Assembly: GCA_902623995.1 (NCBI GenBank)
Contig: CACNWE010000002.1
Span: forward strand, 203,282 to 235,281
Length of the DNA stretch: 32,000 bases
Reading direction: 5' to 3'
DNA from: an uncultured SAR116 cluster alpha proteobacterium
Lineage (GTDB): Bacteria > Pseudomonadota > Alphaproteobacteria > Puniceispirillales > Marisalimonadaceae
Position numbers and translations under genes: made by a program. The notes beneath the pieces were generated by a model. The model searched no databases. It worked only from the letters and a program-made list of their open reading frames with translations, and was not told the origin of the DNA. Shown piece after piece: positions 604 through 30,825 of the stretch. Position 1 is the stretch's first letter; every line of letters starts with the position of its first letter.

Positions 604-2484
604 TTAAACGTTAATAATTTTTAATAAACGATTTACCGCTTCGTCAACTGTTTCTGTTTTAGTTTTAATATGTACATCCGGATTAGTTGGTATTTGGTAA
701 GAACTTCCAATACCAGTAAAATTTGGAATTTCACCTTTCCTTGCTTTTTTGTATAACCCTTTAGGATCTCTTTCTTCAGCTAATTCAAGTGGAGTGTCAA
801 TAAATATTTCAATATATTCTTTTTCTTCAAATAATTCACGTACCATTTCCCGCTCAGCTCTGAAAGGAGAAATAAAAGCAGAAATTACAACGATTCCAGC
901 ATCTACCATTAGTTTTGCAACTTCACCAATTCGTCTTATATTTTCAACTCTATCTGCGTTTGTGAAACCAAGGTCACTATTGAGGCCATGACGGATATTG
1001 TCACCATCTAAAATATAAGTGTGAATACCTTTTGCATATAATTTTTTCTCGAGTGCGTTAGCAATAGTAGATTTTCCTGAGCCAGAAATTCCTGTAAACC
1101 ACAGAACTTTGCTTATATGGCCCTTAAGTTGATTCCGTGCTTTCTTGTCAATATCAAGTTTTTGTTGATGTAAGTTATTAGCACGACGGAGTTCAAATTC
1201 TATCATGCCTGCCGCTACAGTTTGGTTGCTTATTCTATCGATTAATATAAAAGCACCTAGTGGTGGGCAGACATGATATTTTTCAAAAGCTATAAGGCGA
1301 TCAGTTTTGATTGTTACAACTAAAAGGTCATTGAGCTCTAATTGTGTTGCTGAAAGATTCTCAAAATTATTAATATTTATCTTGTGCTTTATTGATGTGA
1401 TATTAGCGTTAACTAATGTAGTACCTAATTTCAACCAAAAATTACGACCAAGATAACCGGGGTTTTGATCCATCCATACTAATGCAACTTGAAATTGGTC
1501 TGAAACTTGACATGGGTCGTCAGCCGCTACTATGACGTCTCCTCTGGATGCATCAATTTCTTTGTTAAGAGTAAGAGTTATGGATTTTCCTTGCTCTGCA
1601 CTTTGGAGTTTATCTTTAAACAATATAATATCCTTAATTGTTGCTATTTCACCTGATGGTAAAACTTTAATTGATTGACCAATATTAACTCTACCAGCCT
1701 CAATCATACCTGAAAAACCTCGAAAATTTGAATCATAGCGGTTAACCAATTGAACAGGAAATCTTAGTGGCTGATCAACAGCGGTTGATCTAGTTTCAAT
1801 AGTTTCTAAATAATTTAAGAGCGTTGGTCCTTCATACCAATTCATGTTATCAGATGAATGAGTAATATTATCTCCTTTTAATGCTGAAATTGGAATTGTG
1901 ATTACGTTTTGAAATTTAAGTGAACTAGAGAATTCTTTATATTGTTCAGATATTTGATCATAAGTAATTTGCTGATAATCCACTAAATCCATTTTATTTA
2001 TTGCCACAACAATATTTTTTATACCTAAAACTGAACAAATAATTGAATGACGACGCGTTTGCTCAAGTATACCTTGTTGTGAGTCGATTAAAATTATTGC
2101 TAACTTAGCTGTTGAAGCACCAGTTATCATATTTCTTGTGTATTGTTCATGTCCAGGAGTATCTGCAACTATAAATTTACGATTCTCTGTAGAAAAATAC
2201 CTGTATGCAACATCGATTGTTATACCCTGCTCTCTCTCGGAAGCTAATCCGTCGACTAAAAGAGCAAAATCAATATTATTTCCTTGGGTACCAATTTTTC
2301 GTGAATCAGATTGAAGTGATTTTATTTGGTCTTCAAAGATCACTTGAGCCTCAAAAAGCATTCTTCCTATAAGAGTACTTTTGCCATCATCAACACTACC
2401 ACAAGTTATAAATCTCAAAGTATCAAGTTTGGCTTGTTTGCTGAGATACTGATTAACCTCACTAACATAGGTTAATTTAGTCAT
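604..2484 (-). CDS. cysNC: Bifunctional sulfate adenylyltransferase subunit 1 / adenylylsulfate (APS) kinase (CysN-CysC fusion, NodQ-like)
   Basis: GTPase motifs [21 protein letters not shown] and NKMD in the N-terminal two thirds. The C-terminal APS kinase has P-loop [11 protein letters not shown]. The ORF track starts at TTG 2490; the ATG at 2484 (MTKLTYV...) is the likelier start, 2 nt after the cysD stop. Confidence 0.9.
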
Positions 2485-2486
2485 CT

Positions 2487-3986
2487 TCAAAAATATCCTT
2501 CTTGTTTTTTTATTTCCATTGAAGCAGCATTATCTACATCTATGGCTCTTCCCTGACGTTCACTAATATTTGTACTTAAAATTTCCAAAATAATGGCTTC
2601 AAGATTATTAGCTGAAGATTCAATTGCTCCGGTCAAGGGGTAACAACCAAGTGTTCTAAAACGAATTCTTTTTATTTTAATATTCTCATTAGGCTTTAAA
2701 GGAAAACGATCATCATCTACCATTATTAACATATTATCACGATTTACAACCGGCTGTTCATGTGCAAAATAAAGTGGTACAATTGGAATATTTTCACGAT
2801 AAATATATAGCCATACGTCAAGTTCTGTCCAATTTGAGATAGGAAAAACACGAAGGCTTTCATTTTGGTTTTTCTTTCCATTATATAAAGACCAAAGTTC
2901 AGGACGTTGATTTTTGGGATCCCAGCGATGAGAGGAAGTTCTAAATGAAAAAACACGCTCTTTTGCACGACTTTTTTCCTCATCTCGTCTTGCTCCTCCA
3001 AAAGCAACATCAAAATGGTAATGTTCTAAAGCTAATTTTAAAGATTGTGTTTTCATTATGTCTGTATGTATGGAAGATCCATGATCAAAGGGATTGATAT
3101 TTTTATCAACACCCTCTTGATTAACATATACTAACATATCCATTCCTACTTCTTTTGAGATATAATCACGAAAGTCATACATTGCTTTAAATTTCCAGCG
3201 TGTGTCTATGTGCAGAAGTGGAAATGGTGGTGGATTTGGATAAAATGCTTTACGTGCTAAGTGTAACATAACAGACGAATCTTTTCCAATTGAGTATAAC
3301 ATAACAGGATTGTCTGCTTCTGCCATAACTTCTCTTATGATATGAATAGATTCAGATTCAAGTCGGTCTAAATGGGTCATTTTAGTATTGGATGAGTTTA
3401 TAAAATTATGATTGGTTGTTTCTAAGATATCTGAGTAGCCATGTGAATACATTGCAAGCTCAACACAAATAGAAGATTCAGGTAAATTAATTAATTTTTT
3501 TGCATGATTTTTTTTTAAAAACTTACGTAAAAATTCAACAAGCTTACCGGATGGCAAAATCTGAATATCTCTTTTCTCAAATTGTGCAATTGCTACAAAT
3601 GCTTGTTTAAGCGTTTCATATTTTACACTATTAGTATTTAACTTTATCCAGAAACGATTTTTATCATAATCGTTTAATCCAAGGATAAACTCTTTTGATT
3701 TATGATTAACTATTTGAGCAAATAAGATTAATTTTTCTGATTTTCTTGCACATTTGATTTGTTGTTCAAGTACTAACTGTTTAGCTTTTCTACCATGTTC
3801 ATCCACTATTGACAGATTATCGAGTGGATTAAAATTTAGTTCACTTTTATTTATAGCTTTTTCAATCCTTTTGAGTAAAATTTTAGGATTATCTTTAAAT
3901 ATTTCTTGAGAAATTTCTTTAGTTGTAAATAGAGAAAAGTTGGGATAACTTTTTAGCCACTTTGATATGATTTGAGTATTTTCCAT
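2487..3986 (-). CDS. cysD: Sulfate adenylyltransferase subunit 2 (CysD/NodP) with an uninterrupted ~202-aa N-terminal extension of unknown function
   Basis: Canonical CysD begins at internal Met203 (ATG at 3378-3380 on the minus strand): [18 protein letters not shown]...[15 protein letters not shown] (PAPS-reductase-like SxGxDS loop). That leaves ~297 aa to the stop, the normal CysD size. The upstream 606 nt have no stop codon despite the extreme AT content. Confidence 0.9.
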
Positions 3987-4286: not shown

Positions 4287-5306
4287 ATGACGAAAAATAG
4301 TTTCAATGTATTTGTAATAACTCGTTTTGGTATTGGGCAAAATTCAAAAACTTTTTATGATCGTGAAATTCCTTATTTGGAAAACCTATTAATAAGATCA
4401 ATATTAAAACAAAAAGAATTTATAACTAAGTGGATTATATTAATTGATGTAAAAACTCCAAAATTTGTAACAGAAAAATTAAAAAAATTAATCCCCAAAG
4501 ATATCCTATTCATTTATGCACATGATGTTTTTTTATCAGGCTCTACTATGCCTAATATCACATCAATTTTGAAAAATTTGGGTATTAGAAATAAGGATAA
4601 AGTTGTTACAATTAGAGTGGATGCAGACGACATACTTTCTAACGATTATATTTCATCAGTTTTAGACGTTATAAATATTCAAAAACAAAGAAATAAATAT
4701 GATTTGATCTCTGTTGACGCAACTATAGGGATATATTTTTATCCAATACGAAATAAATTAGTAAAGGTTTTTAGAAAAAATTACAGCATTCAAGCACTAT
4801 ATTCAATTTTTGGCAGTAGTTTCAAATCTGTTCATGATGGAGGAGGTCATGGCGGGTTAGAAAAAATGGTGTTAAAGAAGGGTGGTATTTACTATCAGTT
4901 AAATAATAAAGAATTTTGGATTAGGTCTATGAGGCAACATTCGGTCTCACAATTAGGCATAAAGTTTAATGTTTTATTTGGTAGATACGAAATTATAAAA
5001 AATATTATGAAAATTTTATTAAAAAAAATTTACAATAGTAATACCTTTTACAAAGGAAGAGTGAGTGTAAAGGAATTATCCAATCGTTTCGAAATATCAG
5101 AAAAAATTGTATCTTTATTAAATTTACAGGAACAAAGTTTAGAAATAAAACAGACAGTCTTTTCACCTTTAATAAAAAAAGTTATGAAAGATAACAAAAA
5201 TAGAAATAGAACAAAAATTCAACAAGTTTTATTGAAAATGTATAAAAAAGAAAAAAGCAAAACTGCAAGAGCTAAAATAAAAAAAGAATTTTATAATTTT
5301 TATTAA
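4287..5306 (+). CDS. GT-A-like glycosyltransferase (resembles the 'putative rhamnosyl transferase' family) with a Lys-rich C-terminal tail
   Basis: N-terminal VFVITRFGIG, then SILKQKEFITKWIILIDVKTP, and a DxD-like TIRVDADDILSNDY. This pattern recalls the TRF...RLDxDD layout of that family. Recognition is from memory only. Confidence 0.5.
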   Translation: MTKNSFNVFVITRFGIGQNSKTFYDREIPYLENLLIRSILKQKEFITKWIILIDVKTPKFVTEKLKKLIPKDILFIYAHDVFLSGSTMPNITSILKNLGIRNKDKVVTIRVDADDILSNDYISSVLDVINIQKQRNKYDLISVDATIGIYFYPIRNKLVKVFRKNYSIQALYSIFGSSFKSVHDGGGHGGLEKMVLKKGGIYYQLNNKEFWIRSMRQHSVSQLGIKFNVLFGRYEIIKNIMKILLKKIYNSNTFYKGRVSVKELSNRFEISEKIVSLLNLQEQSLEIKQTVFSPLIKKVMKDNKNRNRTKIQQVLLKMYKKEKSKTARAKIKKEFYNFY

Positions 5307-5431: not shown

Positions 5432-6562
5432 ATGAGAATTGTTCATATAATTACTGGCTTAGGGGATGGAGGTGCTGAACATACACTATACAAAATTTGT
5501 AAATACGATAATTCAAATGAACATATTGTTGTCTCGCTAAACGGACTTGATAAATATGGACCTTTATTAGAAAAATTAGGTATCAAAGTTTATTGTTTGA
5601 ATTTAACTATTATTTCTATTTATAAATTTATTTTTCTGATCAAATTAATCCGTTTGTCTAAACCGCATATAGTACAAACTTGGCTCGTCCATGCTGATTT
5701 ATTAGGAGGTGTTGCTGCTAAGTTGTGTGGTGTGGAAAATATTATTTGGAATATTCGTTACTCAAATTTAGAAATTGGCAAAGCAAAGTTTTTTACAATT
5801 ATAATAATTAATTTATTGGCAAAATTATCTTTTTTAATACCTAAATTCATTGTCGTAGTCTCTAAAAAAGCTATAAAAGTTTATGAAAAACAAGGATATG
5901 ACAAAAAAAAATTTATATTTATACCAAATGGCTATGATCTTGCAATTTTAAAACCTAATAATTTTCAAAAATCAGATTTTAGAAAAAAATATAGTATAAA
6001 AAAAGAAATACCTTTGATTGGTAATGTTGCTAGGTATGATCCAAAAAAGGGTCATTTGAACTTAATGCATGCATTGTCATTACTAAAATTAAAAAATATT
6101 AATTTTTTTTGTGTCTTTATTGGTTCTAATATAACCAAGGATAATTTAGAATTAACTTCAGAAATTGAACGACTTAGTCTAGAAAATCATGTGAAATTAT
6201 TAGGACAAAATAATAATATTATAGAAGTAATGAATGGATTAGATGTTTATGTTCATAGCAGTATTTATGGAGAAGGATTTCCAAATGTAGTTGCTGAATC
6301 TATGGCTTGTGGTACACCGTGTGTTGTAACAGATGTTGGAGATGCCTCGCTGATTGTAGGTAAAACTGGATGGGTGATTCCACCTAATAATTCAAAAAAA
6401 CTTGCTTATACAATTGAAAAAGCACTTAATGAAATTGGAAAAGAAGAATGGAATAAAAGAGTTAATAATACAAGATTAAGAGTTAAAACTAATTTTGATA
6501 TTAGTATAATGATCAAATCCTACAACACTCTATGGAGCTCTATTCATAAGAAAATGACATAA
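5432..6562 (+). CDS. Glycosyltransferase family 4 (GT-B fold)
   Basis: N-terminal MRIVHIITGLGDGGAEH and C-terminal EGFPNVVAESMACGTPCVVTDVGD (E-x7-E region) are typical of GT4 retaining transferases. Confidence 0.85.
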   Translation: MRIVHIITGLGDGGAEHTLYKICKYDNSNEHIVVSLNGLDKYGPLLEKLGIKVYCLNLTIISIYKFIFLIKLIRLSKPHIVQTWLVHADLLGGVAAKLCGVENIIWNIRYSNLEIGKAKFFTIIIINLLAKLSFLIPKFIVVVSKKAIKVYEKQGYDKKKFIFIPNGYDLAILKPNNFQKSDFRKKYSIKKEIPLIGNVARYDPKKGHLNLMHALSLLKLKNINFFCVFIGSNITKDNLELTSEIERLSLENHVKLLGQNNNIIEVMNGLDVYVHSSIYGEGFPNVVAESMACGTPCVVTDVGDASLIVGKTGWVIPPNNSKKLAYTIEKALNEIGKEEWNKRVNNTRLRVKTNFDISIMIKSYNTLWSSIHKKMT

Positions 6563-6644: not shown

Positions 6645-6848
6645 ATGCCACTCATATATACATTCACTACTATAATATTAATAATTACTAGCAAAAACGC
6701 TTATGCATATTTAGATCCTGGAATGGGTAGTATGATTATTCAAGGCATCATAGCTACAATTGCCGCTACAGGTTTAACAATTAAAATTTACTGGCAAAAA
6801 ATTAAGGATTTCTTTATCAAAAAGAAAAAAAAAGATAAAAAAGAATAA
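6645..6848 (+). CDS. Small (67 aa) membrane protein of unknown function
   Basis: Signal-like hydrophobic N-terminus ending AYA, then YLDPGMGSMIIQGIIATIAATGLTI (a transmembrane helix preceded by a DPGxGS motif) and a KKKKKDKKE tail. It fills the gap between two same-strand genes. No homolog recognised. Confidence 0.35.
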   Translation: MPLIYTFTTIILIITSKNAYAYLDPGMGSMIIQGIIATIAATGLTIKIYWQKIKDFFIKKKKKDKKE

Positions 6849-6911: not shown

Positions 6912-8045
6912 ATGTTTAAATTTATAAAAAATATTATAAATGAGTTTAGAGATTTATTATCTTCTTTAAACATATTAGTTGATACAAAAAATACAAAACC
7001 AAAAATCATCTTTTTTTCAGAAAACAAAGTTTATCAAAAATTTTCTAAACCATTGATTGAAATAATTCTTTCTGTCAGCTCTAACAAAATATATTATTTA
7101 AGTATTGATAAAGAAGACAAAATTCACCACAAAAAAGTAAAAAATTATTATATCAGCCCTTTTTTAATAAATTTTACATTCAATAATTTGAGAGCTGAAA
7201 ATATTTTTTTAACAATTACGGATTTAGGAAATAATTTATTAAAAAAAACAAAAAATATTGATCAATATATTTACTATTTTCATTCACCTGTAAGCACTAT
7301 TAAGAATTATACTTCTAGGGCATTTGACAATTATGATACCATATTGTGCGTTGGTCAATTTCAAATAGATGAGATAAGATCAAGGGAAAAGTCAAAAAAT
7401 CTAAAGAAAAAAAAATTAATCTCTGCTGGCTACTTATATTTTGATTACCTACTAAATAATATTAATTATAACATTAATAACAAAGAAATTTTAATAGCAC
7501 CATCTTGGAATAAAGATTTAAAAAATTTTATAAATGAAAATTTTATAGAATTGATAGAAATTTTAATTGTAAAAGGATTTAAGGTTATCTTTAGGCCACA
7601 TCCTGAACATTTTAAAAGATCAAATAAAATATTACTAGGTATGAGAAATAAATTTTCAAATAAAAATTTTAAATTAGATGCTGATGACAACAATTTAAAA
7701 TCTATGGAAAAAGCAAGATGTTTAATAACGGATAGCTCTGGCATAGCAATTGAGTATATGATTGTTATGAAAAGACCAGTTTTATATCTTGACGAGTATG
7801 ATAAAATTCATAATTCTGAGTTTAGAGAACACTTAGGAAAAAAAGTGTTAGATCATGATATTAAGAAAAACTTTGGTTACATGTTTAAAAAGCATGATTT
7901 TAATAAAATTGATTTTATTATTAATGACTCAGAAAAAAAATTAGTAAAAAAAATGTCAGCACTAAATAATTTTATTAAAAAGAATTATTTTTATTTTGGA
8001 AATACAAAAACTTATTTATTTTCATATTTTAAAAAAAACATATAG
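6912..8045 (+). CDS. TagF/TagB-like CDP-alcohol phosphotransferase (CDP-glycerol glycerophosphotransferase family)
   Basis: Family-typical motifs EILIAPSWNKD (cf. LYAPTxR), VIFRPHPEH and LITDSSGIAIEYMIVMKRPVLYLDEYD (cf. LITDYSS...P.I.F..D). It lies directly upstream of the phosphonate operon. Confidence 0.65.
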   Translation: MFKFIKNIINEFRDLLSSLNILVDTKNTKPKIIFFSENKVYQKFSKPLIEIILSVSSNKIYYLSIDKEDKIHHKKVKNYYISPFLINFTFNNLRAENIFLTITDLGNNLLKKTKNIDQYIYYFHSPVSTIKNYTSRAFDNYDTILCVGQFQIDEIRSREKSKNLKKKKLISAGYLYFDYLLNNINYNINNKEILIAPSWNKDLKNFINENFIELIEILIVKGFKVIFRPHPEHFKRSNKILLGMRNKFSNKNFKLDADDNNLKSMEKARCLITDSSGIAIEYMIVMKRPVLYLDEYDKIHNSEFREHLGKKVLDHDIKKNFGYMFKKHDFNKIDFIINDSEKKLVKKMSALNNFIKKNYFYFGNTKTYLFSYFKKNI

Positions 8046-8100: not shown

Positions 8101-9402
8101 ATGAAAAAAAAAATTGCATATGTTGGTATGTCTGCCGACATTCTTCACAAAGGTCACATTAATATCTTAAAAACTGCCAGTAGATATGGTGAGGTATATG
8201 TAGGATTGTTAACAGATCAAGCAATTGCAAGTTATAAAAATATCCCATATTTAGACTATGAAAAAAGAAAAATAATCCTTGAAAATATAAAATATGTTAA
8301 GAAAGTTGTTCCACAGTTAACCCTAGATTATGTCGAAAATCTTAATCTAATTAAACCTGATTATGTAGTTCATGGTGATGACTGGAAAATTGGTATTCAA
8401 AAGGAAACACGAAAAAGGGTGATTAACACTATAAAAAAGTGGTCCGGTAAGCTTATAGAGCCAAAATATACAGAAAAAATATCATCTACGTTAATAAAAA
8501 AAGAAATGTCAAATTTAATTACTTCGCCTGAAAATAGAATTTCAAGATTAAAACGATTAATGAGCTCTAAAGATATTGTTAAAATATTAGAGTCTCATAA
8601 TCCTCTTACTGGTCTAATAATAGAAAAAATTAATGTTAAAAAAAACAAAAAAACAATAGAGTTTGATGGAATGTGGTCATCTAGTCTAACTGACTCTGCT
8701 ACAAGAGGTCTTCCAGATAATTCTTCTTTATCTTTCTCTGCCCGTATCTCTTCATTAAATGATATGATGGATGTGACAAGTAAGCCAGTTGTTTTTGATG
8801 CAGATAACGGTGGTCAAATTGAACACTTACCTTTTTTAATTAGATCTTTAGAAAGATCTGGTGCATCAGCTATAATAATGGAAGACAAAGTAGGTTTGAA
8901 GAAAAACTCACTATTTAAAAATCAAAAAGACACTAAACAAGATAAACCTGAATTATTTGCAAAAAAAATAAAAAAAATATGTGATTTGCGTCAATCTAAA
9001 GATTTTATGGTTATAGCTAGAATTGAAAGTTTCATAATTGGTAAAGGTTTAACTGATGCCATAAAAAGAGCAGACATATATTCCAAAGCTGGAGCTGATG
9101 CTATTTTAATTCATAGTAAAGAGAAAACACCGGCAGAAATATTCTCTTTCGCTAAAGAATTTAAAAAAAGTAAAAATTTTATTCCGTTAGTTTGTGTTCC
9201 TTCTACTTATTCTAAAGTAAAGGAAGATGATTTGATAAAACATGGATTTAAATTAGTCATATATGCTAACCAACTTCTAAGAGCTGCTTACCCAGCAATG
9301 CAAGAGACTGCAAGAACGATTTTGAAAAATCAAAGAGCATTTGAAGCTGATAAAAAAATAATACCAATCAATGAAATAATAAACTTAATTAAAAATGATT
9401 AA
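8101..9402 (+). CDS. pepM: Bifunctional cytidylyltransferase / phosphoenolpyruvate mutase (Fom1-like, PntC-Ppm type fusion)
   Basis: The N-terminal ~135 aa carry HxGH (ADILHKGHINIL) and YTEKISSTLI, as in TagD-type cytidylyltransferases. The C-terminal domain has FDGMWSSSLTDS, FDADNGG, the PepM-diagnostic EDKVGLKKNS (EDKxxxxxNS), ARIES and GADAILIHS. The ORF track extends to 7996, but that part overlaps the upstream gene; ATG 8101 (MKKKIAYVG) is the sensible start. Confidence 0.9.
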   Translation: MKKKIAYVGMSADILHKGHINILKTASRYGEVYVGLLTDQAIASYKNIPYLDYEKRKIILENIKYVKKVVPQLTLDYVENLNLIKPDYVVHGDDWKIGIQKETRKRVINTIKKWSGKLIEPKYTEKISSTLIKKEMSNLITSPENRISRLKRLMSSKDIVKILESHNPLTGLIIEKINVKKNKKTIEFDGMWSSSLTDSATRGLPDNSSLSFSARISSLNDMMDVTSKPVVFDADNGGQIEHLPFLIRSLERSGASAIIMEDKVGLKKNSLFKNQKDTKQDKPELFAKKIKKICDLRQSKDFMVIARIESFIIGKGLTDAIKRADIYSKAGADAILIHSKEKTPAEIFSFAKEFKKSKNFIPLVCVPSTYSKVKEDDLIKHGFKLVIYANQLLRAAYPAMQETARTILKNQRAFEADKKIIPINEIINLIKND

Positions 9403-10492
9403 AGTTGAAGAACTAATAAACATTTTTAAAAAAAATAATAGTAATTTTTTTACAGGTGTTCCAGACAGTGTTTTAAAAGAATTGTCATCGTTTCTTCAAA
9501 GTAAAAATAAAAAAAACCATATTATTGCTACCAGCGAAGGCTCAGCTGTGTCAATTGGTATAGGTCATTACCTGTCTAAAAAAGAGATACCAATAATTTA
9601 TATGCAAAATTCTGGGCTTTCAAATGCATTAAATCCTTTAATATCAATGGCACATGATAAAGTTTATTCGATACCATTAATTTTAGTGATTGGGTGGAGA
9701 GGTTCACCAATGCTTAAAGATGAACCCCAGCATAATGTAAAAGGTATGATTACTGAACAACTTTTAAAACTATTAAAAATTAAATACACTATTATAAGAT
9801 CGCCTGCTGACTTAAATAAATTTGATAAACAAATTAAACTTGCAAATAAAAATAAAACTATTGTTGCCTGTTTGATTGAGCAAGGCACCTTCCAAAAAAC
9901 TAAAATAATTAACAAAAAAGATTTTTATGCACTAGAAAAAGAATTTTTTTTTAAAACCTTGCTCGAAAACATTAATATAAAGACAAAAATAATCTCAAGT
10001 ACTGGCTATAATTCTAGAGAACTAATGTACTTTAGAAAAAAATATAAGCTATTTCATGGTAGAGATTTCTACATGGTTGGTGGTATGGGTCATACTGCAT
10101 CCACAGCACTTGGTTATTCTTTGTTTTCACAAAACACAACATTATGTATAGATGGTGATGGGTCATGTTTGATGCATCTTGGATCAATTAAAACTGTAGG
10201 TATGTTTGCAAGTACAAATTTTAAATATATTCTTTTAAATAATAACTCACATGACTCTGTAGGCGGTCAACTTACTTACGCGAGCGAAATTGATTTTGAA
10301 AAATTAAGTATCAGTCTTGGCTTTGAAAAGTATTATTGTATCGACAATCAATATAAGTTGGAAGATAAAATTAAGGAATTTTTATCAGAAAAAAATCTTA
10401 GTTTCCTTGAAGTAAAAATAGCAAATTGTAAAATTAAAGAATTACCCCGACCATTAAATTTTATTAAAATTAAAAACGATTTTATGGAATAA
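9395..10492 (+). CDS. ppd: Phosphonopyruvate decarboxylase (thiamine-diphosphate dependent)
   Basis: ThDP-binding motif GDGSCLMHLGS...LNNNSHDSVGGQ. The ~365 aa size is typical of Ppd. The start overlaps the pepM stop (ATGATTAA), implying translational coupling. Confidence 0.85.
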   Translation: MIKVEELINIFKKNNSNFFTGVPDSVLKELSSFLQSKNKKNHIIATSEGSAVSIGIGHYLSKKEIPIIYMQNSGLSNALNPLISMAHDKVYSIPLILVIGWRGSPMLKDEPQHNVKGMITEQLLKLLKIKYTIIRSPADLNKFDKQIKLANKNKTIVACLIEQGTFQKTKIINKKDFYALEKEFFFKTLLENINIKTKIISSTGYNSRELMYFRKKYKLFHGRDFYMVGGMGHTASTALGYSLFSQNTTLCIDGDGSCLMHLGSIKTVGMFASTNFKYILLNNNSHDSVGGQLTYASEIDFEKLSISLGFEKYYCIDNQYKLEDKIKEFLSEKNLSFLEVKIANCKIKELPRPLNFIKIKNDFME

Positions 10493-11596
10493 ATGATAAA
10501 TACAACAAGTGAAATTACTAATTACTTAGATAATGATTCCTATAAAAAAATATTCATTTTATGTGGAAAAAAATCTTTTACATTTTCTGGTGCAGAAGTA
10601 TTTTTTAAAAATATATTAAGAAAAAAAAAGATTAAAATTTTTTATAAAAGATCAGAAATACCTGACTTTAATGAATTAGTTTCAATAATAAAAATTATTA
10701 GAAATTTCAAACCAAATTTAATTTTAGCCGTAGGTGGGGGTGCAGTATTAGATTATGCAAAAATTGCTAATGTTGTTGATATAAAGTCTAATTTAGTAGA
10801 CTTAATTTCTAATTATTCATACCCTTTTGAAAATAAATATACAAAATTAGTTGTTATTCCCACTACAGCAGGATCTGGGGCCGAAATCACTTCCAATGCT
10901 GTTATTTATGTTGATGGTATAAAACATTCATTGGAAAGTGATCTATTAATACCTGATAAATTCTTTTTAATTCCAAATTTTTTGATTTCTGCACCATTTA
11001 AAGTCAAAGCATCAGCGGGCTTTGATGCTATTGCACAAGCTTTAGAGTCCTTGATTTCAAAAAAATCTACGTTGGAAAGCATAGAGTACGCATCAAATTC
11101 ACTCAAAATTTCAATTGATTACTATTTTCATTATTTAAATAATACAAATCTTAAAAATGCATCAGAAATGAGTTTAGCTGCAAATTTAGCTGGAAAGGCA
11201 ATCAGTATTTCAAAAACAACAGCACCACATGCAATATCATACCCTTTTACCTTTTTATTTAATATAAGTCACGGACATGCAGTAAGTTTATTTTTTGAAA
11301 AAATTTTTAAGTATAATTATTATAATTTAAGTGAATCGGATACTCAATTTGATCTAGAGAAAAGATTTGAGCTTATTTTTGATTTGCTAGAAGTTAAAAA
11401 TATAAAAGATTTTATTTCAAAAATTATTTCAATAAAAAAATATGCTAGGCTAGAAGATAATTTGACTAAGTTAAATATAGATATTGAAAAAAGCTCAGAA
11501 AAAATTATTGGAGGAATAAATTTTTTAAGGCTTGGAAATAATCCTATTAAATTAGATGATCAAAAAATTTATAAAATTATTACAGATCGAATGTAA
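10493..11596 (+). CDS. Iron-containing (group III) alcohol dehydrogenase; predicted phosphonoacetaldehyde reductase giving 2-hydroxyethylphosphonate
   Basis: AVGGGAVLDYAKI, PTTAGSGAEITSNAV and conserved His residues (APHAISYP, SHGHAV). The ATG directly abuts the ppd stop (TAAATG). The Fe-ADH family call is firm; the substrate is inferred from the pepM-ppd context (FomC/PhpC/Pdh precedent). Confidence 0.75.
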   Translation: MINTTSEITNYLDNDSYKKIFILCGKKSFTFSGAEVFFKNILRKKKIKIFYKRSEIPDFNELVSIIKIIRNFKPNLILAVGGGAVLDYAKIANVVDIKSNLVDLISNYSYPFENKYTKLVVIPTTAGSGAEITSNAVIYVDGIKHSLESDLLIPDKFFLIPNFLISAPFKVKASAGFDAIAQALESLISKKSTLESIEYASNSLKISIDYYFHYLNNTNLKNASEMSLAANLAGKAISISKTTAPHAISYPFTFLFNISHGHAVSLFFEKIFKYNYYNLSESDTQFDLEKRFELIFDLLEVKNIKDFISKIISIKKYARLEDNLTKLNIDIEKSSEKIIGGINFLRLGNNPIKLDDQKIYKIITDRM

Positions 11597-11678: not shown

Positions 11679-13412
11679 CTAATCTGACAAATCATATGAT
11701 CTTATATCAAACAGTGCTTTTCCTTTATCCTTACCACTTACTATAATACCGTCATAAACGTTTGCACCGCCTACAACAGATTTATATCGATCAAAGAATT
11801 TTCTTTCTACTTTTAACTTGTCAAATAAATTTTTATTATTCGTTATTTTAGCTAAAATGGCAGGAATAATATCTTGTGTGATCATGATATTGACGTCACT
11901 ATTTGAAATATCTTCAGGCCAGTAAATACTTAAAAAGGTACCATATCTGTCTTGTATATCGTACTTATTTATTTCATTGATATCATAATTTTCAAGAGTA
12001 TGACAATTTTTGGTCAGATAAGGGCCATGATCACTTAAAAGAACAATTATAGAATTTTTATCATTTTTTTTAATATTTAGAACATCATTTCTCATTTCTG
12101 TATTAGCTATTTTCATTCTTTCGAAATATGAATTCTTTTCATTTATGTTACATTTTCCGCTGTTTTGTGAATGGCCAGGAAATTTATTATGAGTAAAAAA
12201 TAGTGACTTTTTTTTCTCTGATCTTAAATAATCTTTTTTTAAATTAAGATAATTATTATAATTAAAGTCATCATCAAATATGTCAAATCTGAATTGACCT
12301 TCAAAAATAGCTTTTGTAAGAGTTTTACCTCCAATTTTAGTGACATCCTCTTTAGGATGATAATTATCCCATTTTATAGGTGATGAACTAAAGAAATAAG
12401 GAGATGTAAATATCGCTGATGTTTTATACCCGTTTGCTTTAAATATATCTAATCCTAGGGCATTACCAGATGTATAATGTCTTCCATCACGATTGATTTC
12501 ACCTTGCATTTCAAGAATTCTAGAGATAGCACCTATTGATAACGCGCTATTAGAATATGTTCCATGATAAATTTTGAAACCATTATTTTCTAAAAATTTA
12601 ATATGTTCTTTATTATCGAATCCATAATGATCCAGTGTTTCCAAGTTTGCATATGATTCATATCCCAATATATAAATATTCTTATCTTTAATAATTTTGT
12701 TATTTTTATTTTTCAAGAATTCTAAAAGTTTAGGGTTTTTTTCAAGATATTTTGATTTATGTAAAGAAATGTTATTAAAATTAATTATTATACCACTCAC
12801 AGTAAATAATATTGCGCTTACGTAAGCTATTTTTTTATTAAATAAAAAAAATCCATACATTATTAAAAACAAAATAACTATATATAATCCCTCCATTACA
12901 ATTTGAATGGTAAATATATCATCACCTGGGTTATGTTTATTAGATATTTGAGCCATATTTAATACAGTAAAAGTCAGAGTAAGTCCTGAAAACATCAACA
13001 TTTTCAATGATGCAAAGTAGCTAAAAATTATAGGTAAAATAAAACTAAAAATTAAAATAAAAAATAAAGTAGTACCGAATAGATGAATCAAACCGTTTAT
13101 ATTAAGGTATTCGCTATTAATTATAGAATAATCAAAGACTGGTGACATGGGTAAGATTATTAGGATTAAATCCTTAGTTTCTGGTAAATCTATTTTATTT
13201 TTAAATTTAAAATCTTTATTAAACAGTAAATAAATTATGTAAATAATCATTAAAAATATTAAAGCTAATATAATAATTTTTGAGCCCAATAATAAAAATT
13301 TAGTATTAAATCCCTCTGGAAATAAAAATCTCATTGCAGTCATGCTAAATAGAACAAAAATTGAACTGACGATTAAATCTAAGATAAAATTTGTTTGAGT
13401 TTTTATTTGCAT
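11679..13412 (-). CDS. Polytopic membrane protein with a C-terminal alkaline-phosphatase-superfamily domain (LtaS/EptA/OpgB-like phospho-headgroup transferase or hydrolase)
   Basis: About 6-7 hydrophobic helices in the first ~240 aa, then a soluble domain with NIYILGYESY (metal ligand region), GTYSNSALS and LLSDHGPYL (DH metal ligands). No C/S-x-P-x-R formylglycine motif is present. The ORF track starts at TTG 13481; ATG 13412 (MQIKTQT...) is likelier. Confidence 0.65.
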   Translation of the reverse strand: MQIKTQTNFILDLIVSSIFVLFSMTAMRFLFPEGFNTKFLLLGSKIIILALIFLMIIYIIYLLFNKDFKFKNKIDLPETKDLILIILPMSPVFDYSIINSEYLNINGLIHLFGTTLFFILIFSFILPIIFSYFASLKMLMFSGLTLTFTVLNMAQISNKHNPGDDIFTIQIVMEGLYIVILFLIMYGFFLFNKKIAYVSAILFTVSGIIINFNNISLHKSKYLEKNPKLLEFLKNKNNKIIKDKNIYILGYESYANLETLDHYGFDNKEHIKFLENNGFKIYHGTYSNSALSIGAISRILEMQGEINRDGRHYTSGNALGLDIFKANGYKTSAIFTSPYFFSSSPIKWDNYHPKEDVTKIGGKTLTKAIFEGQFRFDIFDDDFNYNNYLNLKKDYLRSEKKKSLFFTHNKFPGHSQNSGKCNINEKNSYFERMKIANTEMRNDVLNIKKNDKNSIIVLLSDHGPYLTKNCHTLENYDINEINKYDIQDRYGTFLSIYWPEDISNSDVNIMITQDIIPAILAKITNNKNLFDKLKVERKFFDRYKSVVGGANVYDGIIVSGKDKGKALFDIRSYDLSD

Positions 13413-13566: not shown

Positions 13567-14691
13567 ATGAAACATATTTTATTTATTGCTGCTGATGCTG
13601 ATTCTTTAATTAATTTCAGACTTCCTTTGATAAAAAAAATATTGTCTAGAGGTCACTTGGTAAGTGTTGCATCGCCAATAAATAAATCATCAAAATTTTT
13701 ACAAAAAGAACTTCAAGATATTGGAGTTAGTTTTCATATATTTAAAGTTTCACGAACAGGTTTGAATCTTTTTAAGAATTTTAAATCTTTATTAGAGATA
13801 TACAAAATTATTAAAATTACAAATCCAAATATAATAATTTCTTATATGGCTAAACCTGTAATTTACACAGGCTTAGTATTAAAAATTTTTAAAAAAATCT
13901 CGTATTATCCTATGATTACCGGTATAGGCTATGGTCTCTACGAAAAAAAATCATTCAAACATATGATACTAAAATTATTAATCAAAAATTTATATTATTT
14001 TTCTTTGAAAAGTGCAAAAAAAATAATATTTCAAAATGCTGATGACCAAACATTATTTAGAAAATTTAAGATAATAGATAAATATAAAATATCAGAAATT
14101 GTAAATGGTTCTGGTATTGATTTGAAAGCTTACCCGTTTTCAAAATTACCTAAAAAACCAATATTTTTAATGGTGGCAAGATTACTCATAGATAAAGGAG
14201 TTAGAGAATATGTAGAAGCTGCAAAGATTGTACGTCTTCAATATCCTAATGTGATTTTTCAATTAGCTGGTAACTTAGACGAAAATCCTGCAAGTATTCA
14301 CTTAAAAGAATTAGAGAAATGGATTCATCAAGGAGATATTTTGTATTTAGGAAAATGTAAATCAGTTCATTTAATCCTACAAAATTGTAAATTTTTTGTA
14401 CTTCCTTCTTATCGCGAAGGGACTCCTAGATCCACTCTGGAAGCGCTCTCAACTGGAAGACCAGTAATTACGACTAATGTTCCAGGTTGTAGGGAAACTG
14501 TAACGCATGGGAAAAATGGATTAATAATACCAGTTAAAGATACATTAGCTTTATCGAAGGCAATGATAAAATTGATAAACACAAAGGATGAACAAATTAA
14601 AAAAATGGCTAGAGAAAGTTTTAATATTGCAAAAGATAAATATGAGGTAAGTAAAGTCAACCAAAAAATGATACAAATAATGAACTTATAA
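13567..14691 (+). CDS. Glycosyltransferase family 4, PglA/WbuB-like
   Basis: N-terminal ILFIAADADSLINFRLPLIKKIL resembles the PglA-type N-terminus. REGTPRSTLEALSTGRPVITTNVPGCRETV is the GT4 nucleotide-sugar binding region. Confidence 0.8.
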   Translation: MKHILFIAADADSLINFRLPLIKKILSRGHLVSVASPINKSSKFLQKELQDIGVSFHIFKVSRTGLNLFKNFKSLLEIYKIIKITNPNIIISYMAKPVIYTGLVLKIFKKISYYPMITGIGYGLYEKKSFKHMILKLLIKNLYYFSLKSAKKIIFQNADDQTLFRKFKIIDKYKISEIVNGSGIDLKAYPFSKLPKKPIFLMVARLLIDKGVREYVEAAKIVRLQYPNVIFQLAGNLDENPASIHLKELEKWIHQGDILYLGKCKSVHLILQNCKFFVLPSYREGTPRSTLEALSTGRPVITTNVPGCRETVTHGKNGLIIPVKDTLALSKAMIKLINTKDEQIKKMARESFNIAKDKYEVSKVNQKMIQIMNL

Positions 14692-14814: not shown

Positions 14815-15855
14815 GTGAGTTTAATTGATATTATTTTTGGAACAGTTCCAAATAGTCTAATTTTTTTTATATTTGTGTTTGCCCTAAATATTATATGTGT
14901 TTTTTTATATAAAAAGCTAGCCTTCAGGTTTGGTATTCTTGCTTATCCAAATTTTAGAACTTTACACGAATTATCTATTCCAAGAGGTGGTGGAATAGTT
15001 TTCTCATTTAGTTTTATAGTTGGTGTATTTGTTCTTTGGTATCTAAATTTATTATCGGAAAAATTATTTTTTATATTAGGTTTGGGAGGAACAATAGCAG
15101 TATTATTTGGGTTTATTGATGATATTTATAATATAAGAGCAATTCGTAAACTTTTAATTCAAATTTGTTTAAGTGCTTGGATTTTATTTTGGTTAGAGGA
15201 TGAAATTTTTTTAAATGAACTTGGTTTGTTAGAATTTATTATGTTACCAACGCTTATGTTTTTTATAGTTTGGATAATCAATGCCTATAATTTTATGGAT
15301 GGAATAGATGGAATGGCAGCCACGGGTGCTTTTTATTTTTCAGGAGCCCTAACTTTAATTATGATTATGACTAATAATTTCTCAGAACTAACATTTTTAT
15401 TTTTCCTTTTGATGGCAAGTGTAGGTGCATTTATACTTTTCAATTGGCCTCCAGCAAATATATTTATGGGTGATGCAGGTAGTATTTTTCTAGGTTATGT
15501 TTTTGGTGCATTTATTATTATAACTGTTTTTAGAGGTGAGCTAAGTATTTGGACCTGGCTTGTAATGTTTGGATATTTTTTCGCTGATACAACGGTTACT
15601 CAAATTACAAGAATAATTTTAGTAAAGCAATATTACAAAGCTCATCGAAGTCATGCTTATCAAAATCTTGCAAGAATAACTGGCAGTCATTTTAAAATTA
15701 CCTTTTGTGTGACTGTTTTCCACGTACTTTGGTTGCTGCCTCTTACATTGTGGACTGTCAAACAACCTGAAATGGAAATATTAGCTGTTTTTTTAGCCAT
15801 CACACCAGGCTTGATAGTAGCCTATAAATATGGGCCTATATTATCATCATCGTAG
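14815..15855 (+). CDS. Polyprenyl-phosphate N-acetylhexosamine-1-phosphate transferase (MraY/WecA/WbpL family), the initiating transferase
   Basis: INAYNFMDGIDGMA and NIFMGDAGSIFLGY motifs, ~10 predicted transmembrane helices and ~346 aa. GTG start; there is no in-frame ATG near the N-terminus. Confidence 0.9.
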   Translation: MSLIDIIFGTVPNSLIFFIFVFALNIICVFLYKKLAFRFGILAYPNFRTLHELSIPRGGGIVFSFSFIVGVFVLWYLNLLSEKLFFILGLGGTIAVLFGFIDDIYNIRAIRKLLIQICLSAWILFWLEDEIFLNELGLLEFIMLPTLMFFIVWIINAYNFMDGIDGMAATGAFYFSGALTLIMIMTNNFSELTFLFFLLMASVGAFILFNWPPANIFMGDAGSIFLGYVFGAFIIITVFRGELSIWTWLVMFGYFFADTTVTQITRIILVKQYYKAHRSHAYQNLARITGSHFKITFCVTVFHVLWLLPLTLWTVKQPEMEILAVFLAITPGLIVAYKYGPILSSS

Positions 15856-17025: not shown

Positions 17026-17466
17026 ATGAAAAAATGGCAAGATATTAAATTAGATGACGAGACTATGTGGCCAAAGGAAGGTCTTGTAAAACTTGATCGT
17101 CCACATGTTGACGATCGTGGTTTTATACAAAATCTTGTGAATTTCCCTATGAAAAATATTTCATTAATTTCTTCAAAAAAGGGATCTATACGCTCTAATC
17201 ATTATCATCTTACTGATTGGCATTATATGTATGTATTGTTTGGATCTTTTGATTATTATTACAAACCAACAAACAGTGATGTTGATTTAAAATGTATACG
17301 AGTAAAAAAAGGTGAAATGATATTTACTCCACCTATGGAAGATCATGCTACATTTTTTTTAGAAGATTGTAATCTATTAGCTATGAGTCGTAATCCGAGA
17401 GATCAGAAAACATACGAATCAGATACACGAAGAATAATTTTGATTTCTCCAGAAGATTTAAAATAA
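17026..17466 (+). CDS. RmlC-like cupin; NDP-4-keto-6-deoxy-sugar epimerase or 3,4-ketoisomerase-like
   Basis: 146 aa, with VDDRGFIQNL and SIRSNHYH as in small sugar-nucleotide cupins (FdtA/QdtA/RmlC-like). The stop overlaps the next start (TAATG). Confidence 0.6.
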   Translation: MKKWQDIKLDDETMWPKEGLVKLDRPHVDDRGFIQNLVNFPMKNISLISSKKGSIRSNHYHLTDWHYMYVLFGSFDYYYKPTNSDVDLKCIRVKKGEMIFTPPMEDHATFFLEDCNLLAMSRNPRDQKTYESDTRRIILISPEDLK

Positions 17467-29337: not shown

Positions 29338-30825
29338 TTATATTATTTCTCCTACATACAGATAATAAATTCGTTCTAAATTATTAACTGTTTTTGTGGA
29401 AATACTTTTGATTAATTTAATTTCATTAAGATTATAGTTTTTCTCTTTTAAATCAGGAAAATTTTTTATGATTAATATTTTTTCCCCTTTTGTTTTATTT
29501 ATTAAGTCGTAATTAAAATTCGATTCATAGAAATTACCAGGAACCAAGCTATTAGTTTTTATAAAAATTTTATTTTCAAATTCGTTTTTGTGACGATTAA
29601 GGTAATAATTAAATCTTGAAATATCTCCTCTTTTTTCAAAAATTATTTTTGATGCTTTTTCCGCTTTAAATGTTTCATGTATTTTTGAAGCAAGGTTTTC
29701 AAATCCTAAATTTTTTCTTAGTGGATTAGATTTTAAATTTAATGGGTAAAAACTTCCATTGATTGTAATAGTTAATATATATGCTGAAATAGCAATATTT
29801 AAAAAAAGTCCCAAATAAAAAGATATTTTAAAGACAGCACTTCGTGTTTTGGTTACATAGTAACTTATGATAAGAGTTGCACCTACATAAGCTGTAATTG
29901 CCCAATTAGCATTTGCAATTTTTAAAAAACTTTGAACTGTAATCAAAAAAATTATAGGAAAAGAAATCATAGCTAATAGAGTAATGTCTCGGTCTTTAAA
30001 AAAACTATCTATTATTACAAAAAGGTATAATAAAAATAATAAAGGCCCAAAGACCAAAAATTGAGATGATAAAAAATCAAGCACATTATTATAGTTCAGG
30101 CTTATTACTGAAAGATTTGCGTTTGAAATAGTATGATTTACCGTTGAAAAGTCATTTAAATAATTCCAATATAAGTTTGGGCTTGCTATCAAAAAGCTTG
30201 TAAACAATATAATAAAAATTTTTTTTACACTTAAAAATGTACTTCGGTCGTAAACTAGCCACCATATAATAAAGAAAATCAAAAAATATAAAGCGGCATA
30301 TTTGGATAAAAATGCGAAGCCTAGAAACATGCCAACAAATAAAGATGAAAGGCTAGAATTATGTCTCAAAGAAATTAATAACAAAAACAAAGATAAAGAC
30401 CAAAATAACAATAGTGGAGTGTCAGTTGAAATTATAAATCCGCCTAAAGAAGCTCCTGGTGTGAATATCCAGATTAAAGCTGCAACTTTTCCAGAGTTTA
30501 ACCCAAATGCAAATTTCGCAGCACCCCACAAAACTAAGGAAATCAATAAATGTGTAATTGGTGAAAAAAGTCTCACAGCCCATTCGTCATTTCCAAAAAT
30601 AAAAGTCGAGATTGAAATCATCCATGCTATGAATGGTGGTTTAGTAAAGTATCCAAAGTCTATATTTCTTGACCAATGCCAATATTGTGCTTCGTCAACA
30701 GACAATTCTATTGGGGAAACGTACAAAGAGTATATTCTTAAAGTAGTTATAATTATTAAGATGAATAGAGTTATAGGAGTGTTAAGTAAGGTAAATCGTC
30801 CCCTCTTGTTTCGGAGTGATAACAT
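29338..30825 (-). CDS. GT-C fold glycosyltransferase, family 39/83 (ArnT/PMT-like, polyprenyl-phosphate-sugar dependent)
   Basis: SVDEAQYWHWSRNIDFGYFTKPPFIAWMI (DE...KPP loop-1 signature), ~11 transmembrane helices and a ~130-aa soluble C-terminus. Confidence 0.8.
   Translation of the reverse strand: MLSLRNKRGRFTLLNTPITLFILIIITTLRIYSLYVSPIELSVDEAQYWHWSRNIDFGYFTKPPFIAWMISISTFIFGNDEWAVRLFSPITHLLISLVLWGAAKFAFGLNSGKVAALIWIFTPGASLGGFIISTDTPLLLFWSLSLFLLLISLRHNSSLSSLFVGMFLGFAFLSKYAALYFLIFFIIWWLVYDRSTFLSVKKIFIILFTSFLIASPNLYWNYLNDFSTVNHTISNANLSVISLNYNNVLDFLSSQFLVFGPLLFLLYLFVIIDSFFKDRDITLLAMISFPIIFLITVQSFLKIANANWAITAYVGATLIISYYVTKTRSAVFKISFYLGLFLNIAISAYILTITINGSFYPLNLKSNPLRKNLGFENLASKIHETFKAEKASKIIFEKRGDISRFNYYLNRHKNEFENKIFIKTNSLVPGNFYESNFNYDLINKTKGEKILIIKNFPDLKEKNYNLNEIKLIKSISTKTVNNLERIYYLYVGEII

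Follow-up and report, generated by a model that had tools for sequence, protein, structure and literature searches.

In a 32,000-nucleotide stretch of contig CACNWE010000002.1 (the window throughout), from an uncultured alphaproteobacterium of the SAR116 cluster, we examined the gene for a TagF-like protein that directly precedes a set of genes for the synthesis of 2-hydroxyethylphosphonate (HEP; coordinates in Table 1). Judged by its fold, by transitive homology and by its catalytic histidines, the protein is a divergent member of the TagF family. The catalytic residues of that family are conserved in it, and the gene set in which it stands, with its operon order and the identities of its neighbours, recurs in other genomes. 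On balance, we favour the reading that it is a peripheral-membrane phosphotransferase of the GT-B fold, re-tooled to use a phosphonate activated on cytidine monophosphate (CMP) in place of CDP-glycerol, and that it adds single units. Among the present candidates for the enzyme that links phosphonates to the cell surface, we consider it the best.

A divergent member of the TagF family

An AlphaFold2 (AF2) model of the protein, built on 28 homologues, was confident (predicted local distance difference test, pLDDT, 89; predicted template modelling score, pTM, 0.86), and we used Foldseek to compare it with solved structures. The top 11 matches were chains of Staphylococcus epidermidis TagF (3L7I-M; E 1.8e-13 to 1.4e-11). 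Next came Cps3D and Bcs3 (8QOY, 8A0C), two TagF-like polymerases that build capsules. UDP-GlcNAc 2-epimerases appeared only at about 4e-8, five orders of magnitude behind TagF, which was thus the best match ahead of all other GT-B enzymes. As a separate observation, the PDB entry 3L7M is titled 'TagF H548A', yet its deposited sequence differs from the wild type at His584 (LLRMAYL versus LLRMHYL); two digits seem to have been transposed in the title.

The protein belongs to a conserved family: it has over 840 close homologues, and an exhaustive profile search gave 2,088 clusters at the 50% identity level. The Glyphos_transf profile (PF04464) is matched by 48 of 66 diverse clade members, with a best E of 6.8e-18, and its gathering score is passed by 9 of 10 long relatives; the target itself is not matched by it. 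Searches of PDB sequences with the TagF-like protein and the family profiles (phmmer and hmmsearch) gave nothing meaningful, and those with the relative P0191 and the domain of P0270 nothing useful. A weak match of full-length P0270 to TarL (E 0.004) was dropped, as it was gone when the domain alone was used.

Profile-profile alignment (hhalign) of the clade with a canonical TagF set, for which the sequence of TagF 338-714 was rebuilt from its alignment to an Enterococcus TagF-like protein, gave a probability of 99.2% in local mode (E 2e-19) and 99.7% in global mode (E 5e-25). Here APSW pairs with APTW, D274 with D622, S276 with S624 and K287-R288-P289 with K634-R635-P636, while H230 pairs with TagF H584 in both modes. 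A preliminary description of this gene had quoted four motifs as being of the TagF family, and all are present (ILIAPSWNKD at residues 193-202, FRPHPEH at 227-233, LITDSSG at 271-277 and RPVLYLDEYD at 288-297), and are no chance resemblances: in the profile-profile alignment they coincide, in the same order, with the homologous TagF motifs APTW, RMH, LITDYSS and KRP.

Two invariant histidines are the catalytic hallmark of the TagF family (PMC10901376, PMC11666461), one acting as the base (TagF H444, TarL H300) and the other contacting the pyrophosphate (TagF H584, TarL H433). Across 66 sequences (24-46% identity) only three columns are invariant, namely H124, G173 and H230. In the AF2 model H124 and H230 each open a loop that follows a beta-strand, as described for TarL (PMC10901376), and H124 is flanked to give F-H-S where the TagF family has W-H-G. 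We predict from these correspondences that H124 (F-H-S motif) is the catalytic base and that H230 (R-P-H-P motif) is the other catalytic residue.

Taken together, the AF2 model with its Foldseek matches, the PF04464 matches of the relatives, the profile-profile alignment and the invariant histidines bear out the membership of the TagF family claimed in the preliminary description. Its label 'CDP-alcohol phosphotransferase' was wrong, as this names an integral-membrane family (PF01066) and the target is a soluble or peripheral GT-B protein. The target has no match to PF01066, the family of the motif D(x)2DG(x)2AR...G(x)3D(x)3D, and it has an amphipathic N-terminal helix with no transmembrane (TM) segment. 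The LicD family (PF04991) was matched neither by the target nor by any open reading frame (ORF) of the window.

A probable operon for making and activating 2-hydroxyethylphosphonate

The TagF-like gene appears to be co-transcribed with the gene that follows it, which encodes a cytidylyltransferase (CT) fused to a PepM domain (CT::PepM). The two share a strand, and exactly 55 nt separate the stop codon of the former from the ATG of the latter at 8101, in agreement with the spacing first reported; a TTG start at 7996, given for CT::PepM by the ORF lister, is an artefact and the ATG was used instead. From the ORF of 67 amino acids (aa) upstream of the TagF-like gene through to the Fe-dependent alcohol dehydrogenase (Fe-ADH) gene, the intergenic gaps are 63, 55, -8 and 0 nt, and the + strand shows no terminator-like site between 6645 and 11596. 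With a GC content of 22-34% the window is very AT-rich, and a promoter scan of such DNA was uninformative (64 sites against 79 expected).

Downstream of the TagF-like gene, the set of genes for 2-HEP synthesis is complete. CT::PepM carries the EDKX5NS motif (as EDKVGLKKNS), and the best match of its CT domain is the cytidylyltransferase (CyTase) of Fom1 (5X3D; 172.5 bits, E 1.4e-49), followed at a distance by ECT (61 bits) and TagD (1COZ, 45 bits). Fom1 converts HEP to CMP-HEP (PMC6697681), and by analogy CT::PepM is predicted to make CMP-2-HEP in addition to phosphonopyruvate. The Fe-ADH gene, which begins right after the stop codon of the phosphonopyruvate decarboxylase (Ppd) gene, is predicted to encode the enzyme that reduces phosphonoacetaldehyde to 2-HEP; its product scores 109 bits against TIGR03405, the phosphonate Fe-ADH model, which is under the cutoff.

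Apart from this CT domain, the 32 kb window holds no nucleotidyltransferase of any type, and neither MpnS nor a 2-aminoethylphosphonate (AEP) transaminase was found in it. Since the CT domain is of the Fom1 type and none of these enzymes is present, the expected activated product is CMP-HEP. The pairing of an activation gene with a transfer gene, which the preliminary description took to be what the DNA itself displays, is upheld by the Fom1-type cytidylyltransferase gene directly downstream, and no tagD- or tarI-type synthase, which might have explained the gene better, lies within 32 kb. The further proposal that the enzyme uses CMP-HEP is favoured by the same two facts, but the pairing with HEP cassettes is not exclusive.

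Recurrence of the gene set in other genomes

We recovered 21 genome loci with the TagF-like gene, all of them from Pelagibacteraceae, and sought neighbours within 10 kb in the 18 that have informative flanks. A pepM cassette is present in 6 of the 18, where a crude estimate would predict about 0.3% per locus (binomial p ~8e-12, which is indicative only because the loci are not phylogenetically independent); at L002 the six-gene cassette stands alone among housekeeping genes. Directly 3' of the TagF-like gene, 8 of the 18 have a helix-turn-helix (HTH) nucleotidyltransferase whose closest relatives of solved structure are LicC and the PntC fusion 6PD1, and in 6 of those 8 it is followed by PhnD/C/E. 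Six loci without pepM (L007, L008, L010, L012, L017 and L019; ~11.0-14.8 kb of 21-kb loci) carry the TagF-like gene, the HTH-LicC/PntC-like nucleotidyltransferase and PhnD/PhnC/PhnE. The combination suggests, by analogy with LicB and LicC for choline, the import and CMP-activation of an exogenous phosphonate.

MpnS (6B9S, 367 bits) is found together with a stand-alone Fom1-type CT in 3 of the 18 loci. At L014 (11060-12864), L015 and L022, MpnS is beside the CT (family c24, 147 aa) and the TagF-like gene, and L015 has these three with no pepM within 10 kb. A small ORF and an EptA-like gene are the only such neighbours in 3 of the 18, and one locus has none of them. Outside the Pelagibacteraceae, a Deferribacterales genome (L031, GC 43%) encodes a YidC::TagF-like fusion flanked by a small ORF, a sulfatase-like gene, Ppd, Fe-ADH and CT::PepM. 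Of all the loci, this one and L002 weigh most.

Viewed from the pepM side, the cassette takes two forms. We scanned 80 SAR11-type CT::PepM metagenome loci (L036-L115) with a sensitive hidden Markov model of the TagF-like gene, which was detected in 14 of them: in 11 of the 52 loci whose upstream sequence spans 1.3 kb or more and in 6 of the 22 where it spans 5 kb or more. When present, its usual position is directly 5' of CT::PepM on the same strand (~10 loci). Elsewhere the same slot is taken by c5, an adenosine-phosphosulfate (APS)-kinase-family protein of ~180 aa, and/or c8, a 2-oxoglutarate (2OG) oxygenase of ~250 aa whose best match is methylphosphonate hydroxylase. The TagF-like gene and c5/c8 never occur together (both, 0; TagF-like only, 12; c5/c8 only, 37; neither, 31; Fisher p ~3e-4), and repeating the c5 counts under a strict definition, to exclude inflation by single linkage, gave the same result. 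The idea that c5 and c8 might be alternative LicD-like transferases was ruled out by their identities as an APS-kinase-family protein and a 2OG oxygenase. The c5 kinase recalls Campylobacter Cj1415, a CDP-amidate 3'-kinase, and this analogy hints at a 3'-phospho-CMP-HEP donor used by a different class of transferase. SAR11 therefore has at least two ways to complete the HEP pathway, one of them with the TagF-like enzyme.

More distant members of the clade have related neighbours. At L027/L028 and L035 the clade gene directly follows genes for three proteins: a kinase of ~1040 aa (PPDK_N/PEP-utilizer; PRK05849, 844 bits), a GATase that matches the gamma-glutamyl-CDP-amidate hydrolase family best (E 6e-32), and an NTP_transf_3 protein; genes of this Cj1418/1417/1416 type are a route to CDP-amidate (PMC11800397). 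L027 (5384-15784) and L035 (126-8863) have mpnA/mpnB/mpnC-like genes, the TagF-like gene, and then a small AY[LI]DPG protein and a sulfatase-domain membrane protein, with a methyltransferase gene also at L027. The same module may have here a version that decorates with phosphoramidate. At L034 the neighbour of the TagF-like gene is IspD-like. In the window, as in most of the relatives that we examined, the gene for the enzyme adjoins a cytidylyltransferase or NTP_transf_3 gene, and the common denominator of the neighbourhoods is a small phosphorus-containing group activated on CMP.

Predicted partner proteins

Two membrane proteins accompany the TagF-like enzyme. The 67-aa protein encoded immediately upstream, which has a single hydrophobic segment at residues 28-48, matched nothing in Pfam or NCBIfam. 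Members of its family (AY[LI]DPG) recur beside clade members across phyla, adjoining TagF-like genes in SAR11 loci and in L027, L031, L034 and L035 (GC 36-49%), and in at least seven proteins (P0191, P0205, P0206, P0229, P0256, P0263 and P0269) the family is fused N-terminally to the TagF-like domain. It is predicted to be a membrane anchor or subunit of the TagF-like enzyme. In P0246, P0248, P0270 and P0218 (from L031, L035, L034 and L029) the N-terminal fusion is instead a YidC/Oxa1-like 60KD_IMP domain. The JGI name 'YidC/Oxa1 insertase' for SAR11 homologues stems from this fused domain, which the target lacks, and we do not adopt it.

The second protein, of 576 aa, is encoded by a gene convergent with the phosphonate operon. 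Its Pfam match to Sulfatase is only faint, but Foldseek with its AF2 model (pLDDT 84.5) gave MCR-1 (9NWW, 1.6e-8), EptC (3.5e-8) and EptA (4.3e-8), and also PbgA, LtaS and BcsG. E251, S286, H413 and D460-H461, the residues of its candidate site, are invariant. An EptA-like gene adjoins the TagF-like gene in L001, L003-5, L016, L037, L045 and L053, and Sulfatase-domain proteins do so in L027, L031 and L035. We predict that the 576-aa protein is a partner that transfers phospho(no)-headgroups in the periplasm. In P0218 (1545 aa) an EptA/LtaS-like Sulfatase+DUF7024 region, a YidC-like domain and a TagF-like domain make up one protein. This fusion and the EptA-like partner suggest a relay, in which the TagF-like enzyme would make a lipid-linked HEP donor for the periplasmic enzyme.

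Proposed mechanism and alternative explanations

In the mechanism that we propose, the PepM domain would convert phosphoenolpyruvate (PEP) to phosphonopyruvate, Ppd would convert this to phosphonoacetaldehyde and Fe-ADH would reduce it to 2-HEP, which the Fom1-type domain would activate as CMP-HEP. The amphipathic N-terminal helix and the 67-aa partner would hold the TagF-like enzyme at the inner face of the membrane. There H124 would deprotonate the acceptor hydroxyl, the hydroxyl would attack the phosphonate phosphorus of CMP-HEP, and H230 would help CMP to leave, giving a 2-hydroxyethylphosphonyl ester. The acceptor would be membrane-bound, either an undecaprenyl-linked glycan made by the WecA-like and GT4 enzymes of the window or a lipid feeding the EptA/LtaS-like enzyme. 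We infer the donor, the acceptor and the choice between single and repeated transfer from the residues and the neighbours described above.

The preliminary description had speculated that repeated transfer could build a poly(2-hydroxyethylphosphonate) chain, a phosphonate analogue of teichoic acid. HEP keeps a free hydroxyl, so polymerisation is chemically possible, processive polymerases exist within the TagF family, and Lys and Arg are abundant in the protein (17%). Single-addition enzymes such as TagB and TarF have ~380-390 aa, and the target, at 377 aa, compares with these and not with TarL (583 aa) or TagF (721-729 aa). In its AF2 model two short helices precede the GT-B core, which begins near residue 30, with no sign of the additional N-terminal domain that TagF-family polymerases carry (TarL paper, PMC10901376). 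Moreover, SAR11 relatives (46-50% identical) adjoin MpnS and more distant members adjoin CDP-amidate pathways; as neither methylphosphonate nor phosphoramidate carries a hydroxyl, the relatives that stand with these pathways cannot be polymerases. Marine high-molecular-weight phosphonates, as Repeta et al. (2016) are said to have found, are HEP and methylphosphonate esters of polysaccharide and not polyphosphonate, which also speaks against a chain. The size without a polymerase domain and the non-extendable donors of the relatives thus favour single transfer: the enzyme probably adds single units as a decoration, and a poly(HEP) polymerase, which the evidence on architecture and relatives does not bear out, seems to us quite improbable. 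Nor would a teichoic-acid-like polymer in a Gram-negative be new in itself, as TagF-like enzymes that make such polymers are already known there (PMC5974469).

A conventional CDP-glycerol or CDP-ribitol phosphotransferase, with its donor made elsewhere and its place beside pepM explained by a shared hypervariable glycan island, would keep to the canonical chemistry of the family, which is polyol-phosphate transfer. The H-S-P-V that follows the catalytic histidine resembles the H-G-T-P-L of the TagF glycerol site, many pepM cassettes have no TagF-like gene and one relative adjoins an IspD/TarI-like enzyme. Yet the 32 kb contain neither TagD nor TarI and their sole CT is of the Fom1 and not the TagD type; the compact cassette of L002 lies outside any glycan island, the gene set recurs in another phylum (L031), the clade stands repeatedly beside genes that activate phosphonates or phosphoramidates and not beside CDP-polyol synthases, and the TagF-like gene and the c5/c8 tailoring genes exclude one another at the same slot. 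We therefore consider this explanation unlikely. That the protein does not transfer a phosphorus group at all, but is some other GT-B enzyme, for instance a glycosyltransferase that uses nucleotide sugars or a 2-epimerase-like protein, would agree with its faint Pfam matches, which go to the GT-B families Glyco_transf_9 and Epimerase_2; against the Foldseek margin of TagF over the epimerases, the profile-profile match and the invariance of both TagF catalytic histidines, it is hardly credible. A variant of the favoured reading is the relay, in which HEP would be put on a lipid alcohol (diacylglycerol or a polyprenol) on the inside, and the EptA-like partner would transfer it to a periplasmic acceptor. 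The closest structures of that partner (MCR-1, EptA, EptC, LtaS and BcsG) take a phospho-alcohol from a lipid donor, its metal and nucleophile positions are invariant, its gene or a sulfatase gene adjoins the TagF-like gene in many SAR11 loci as well as L027, L031 and L035, and the domain order of P0218 sets the alkaline-phosphatase-superfamily domain on the outer side of the membrane and the TagF-like domain on the inner side. On the other hand, an EptA-like gene is missing within 10 kb in over half of the loci with a TagF-like gene, known TagF enzymes use lipid-linked glycans or polyols instead of bare lipid alcohols, and no flippase was identified, a scramblase role for the YidC-like domain being conjecture. 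We hold the relay to be possible but doubtful, as we do its further elements, namely that a phosphonolipid-type donor reaches the outer leaflet and that lipopolysaccharide, glycan or protein is the acceptor. Only tentatively would we extend it to the whole clade, as the cytoplasmic half of a widespread and hitherto unrecognised three-part machine (the TagF-like enzyme, an AY[LI]DPG anchor or YidC-like domain and an EptA/LtaS-like enzyme) that installs small, unusual CMP-delivered phosphorus groups on bacterial surfaces via a lipid intermediate; the groups would then perhaps be 2-HEP, methylphosphonate, AEP or imported phosphonates, and phosphoramidate.

Several results weigh against a CMP-phosphonate-using TagF enzyme as we propose it. 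The target itself has no match to PF04464 even at E<=10 and no match in NCBIfam, and its H124 aligns with TagF H444 solely in the global alignment. No cytidylyltransferase lies within 10 kb of the clade member in L003-L005, L006 and L029, and the PhnD-type transporters may serve phosphorus nutrition, in which case their adjacency in SAR11 could be inherited synteny. In fosfomycin biosynthesis CMP-HEP is a transient intermediate and not a transfer donor (PMC6697681), and therefore cytidylylation alone is no proof of transfer. Finally, the expectation that the clade would co-occur with pepM holds in part: the pairing is seen in 6 of 18 SAR11 loci and recurs in the Deferribacterales, but it is not obligatory, as only ~20-30% of SAR11 HEP cassettes have a TagF-like gene within 10 kb. 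Most of these cassettes lack the gene, and some other transferase must therefore serve them.

Comparison with known systems

The closest functional parallels to the favoured reading are the primases TagB and TarF and the 'transition transferase' Cps7A (PF04464), which share with the target the GT-B fold, a length of ~380 aa with no extra N-terminal domain, the two catalytic histidines and the APxW, LITD(Y/S)S and KRP motifs (PMC11666461, PMC10901376). Peripheral membrane association, CMP as the leaving group and one-step transfer to a membrane-linked hydroxyl are further common features, which for the target are predicted. Unlike these enzymes, to which it is ~16% identical, the target lies below Pfam detection, has F-H-S for WHG, is missing an insertion of ~17 residues after the catalytic histidine and has a CMP-phosphonate as its predicted donor where theirs is CDP-glycerol; partners like its predicted ones, an AY[LI]DPG protein or YidC-like domain and an EptA-like enzyme, are not known for TagB or TarF. 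The polymerases TagF, TarL, Cps3D and Bcs3 have the same catalytic core and include the best structural matches of the target, but they are multidomain proteins of 580-1150 aa, whereas the target is a GT-B core only and has genomic partners that point to non-polymerisable donors.

The Lic and Pnt pathways, which decorate with phosphocholine or AEP by means of a LicC/PntC cytidylyltransferase and a LicD-type phosphotransferase, follow the same logic, in that a small phosphorus compound is made or imported, activated with CTP and transferred to a surface glycan (PMC6697681), and SAR11 relatives pair a LicC/PntC-like enzyme with an importer as LicB is paired with LicC. The difference is in the enzymes: the transferase has the TagF/GT-B and not the LicD fold, and the cytidylyltransferase is a PF01467 protein of the Fom1 type fused to PepM. 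With Fom1 the window shares this CyTase::PepM fusion, its strong CyTase match and, by prediction, the product CMP-HEP. In the fosfomycin pathway, though, CMP-HEP is a handle for methylation that is later hydrolysed, whereas this set has a transferase gene and lacks Fom3 and FomD-type genes. Modification of the Campylobacter capsule with O-methyl phosphoramidate (MeOPN; Cj1415-1418, Cj1421/1422) likewise provides a small CMP-linked phosphorus group for a surface glycan, and mpnA/B/C-like genes lie directly upstream in L027 and L035, although these loci have no Cj1415-type 3'-kinase. The Campylobacter MeOPN transferases are set apart from the TagF type here by their description in the literature only (PMC7901785).

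By one estimate, SAR11 holds more of the phosphonate producers in the surface ocean than any other group, with pepM in 18% of its cells (PMC8931226), but the steps that follow formation of the C-P bond have been called 'enigmatic' (PMC6697681). CMP-HEP and CMP-AEP are already known (PMC6697681), and the neighbours listed for marine clusters comprise only glycosyltransferases, LicD-type enzymes and sulfatases, with no transferase assigned (PMC8931226, PMC9381506). The literature that we searched describes no link between TagF and phosphonates and no TagF-type phosphonyl transferase. A candidate with predicted catalytic residues, a predicted donor in CMP-HEP and two predicted partners makes the missing step directly testable. 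If the candidate is right, then the substrate range of the TagF family would extend from the formation of phosphodiesters to that of phosphonate esters, and possibly to phosphoramidate chemistry. This significance is tempered by the nature of the case, which is built on sequence and context, and by the minority of SAR11 HEP cassettes that the enzyme would serve.

Other genes of the window

Table 1. Genes of the phosphonate operon and of the surrounding glycan island, in window coordinates.
Feature	Position	Strand	Description
Rhamno_transf-like protein	4287-5306	+	PF11316, 29.6 bits
GT4 glycosyltransferase	5432-6562	+	PF00534, 112.7 bits
Small membrane protein	6645-6848	+	67 aa; hydrophobic leader ending in A-x-A, YLDPGxGS motif (Y-L-D-P-G-x-G-S), one TM helix, basic tail
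TagF-like enzyme	6912-8045	+	ATG-to-stop ORF, 377 aa; divergent TagF family (Glyphos_transf, GT-B fold)
CT::PepM fusion	8101-9402	+	TIGR02320, 371 bits (cutoff 319.55); PF01467, 53 bits; cytidylyltransferase = residues 1-134
Phosphonopyruvate decarboxylase (Ppd)	9395-10492	+	TIGR03297, 341 bits (cutoff 312.5); overlaps CT::PepM by 8 nt
Fe-dependent alcohol dehydrogenase (Fe-ADH), PhpC/Pdh position	10493-11596	+	PF00465, 83 bits; PF25137, 60 bits
EptA/MCR-1/LtaS-like membrane protein	11679-13409	-	576 aa; ~5-7 TM helices and a periplasmic alkaline-phosphatase-superfamily domain
GT4 glycosyltransferase	13567-14691	+	PF00534, 103.8 bits
WecA/MraY-family initiating phosphoglycosyl transferase	14815-15855	+	PF00953, 114.8 bits; TIGR02380, 76 bits

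The operon is embedded in genes for glycan synthesis (Table 1). The upstream pair of Rhamno_transf-like and GT4 genes recurs in L037, again ahead of the small ORF and the TagF-like gene, and a lipid-linked glycan acceptor could come from the downstream GT4 and WecA/MraY-family enzymes. In the island we recognised no intact flippase, Wzy or ABC exporter; a 146-aa ORF at 17026-17466 (+), with a weak match to Polysacc_synt_C only, is maybe a fragment of a Wzx-type flippase. Some 8 kb past the island, amid housekeeping genes, a PMT_2/ArnT-like GT-C glycosyltransferase (29338-30825, -; 99 bits) is a possible transferase of periplasmic glycan or lipid-linked sugar. At the border of the module there are sulfate-activation genes, CysN/CysC and a CysD-like PAPS_reduct gene (604-3986, -), which may provide 3'-phosphoadenosine 5'-phosphosulfate (PAPS) for a sulfated glycan or be there by coincidence. 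ATP-sulfurylase is also found in two distant loci, L032 (8379-9365) and L033 (7016-8047).

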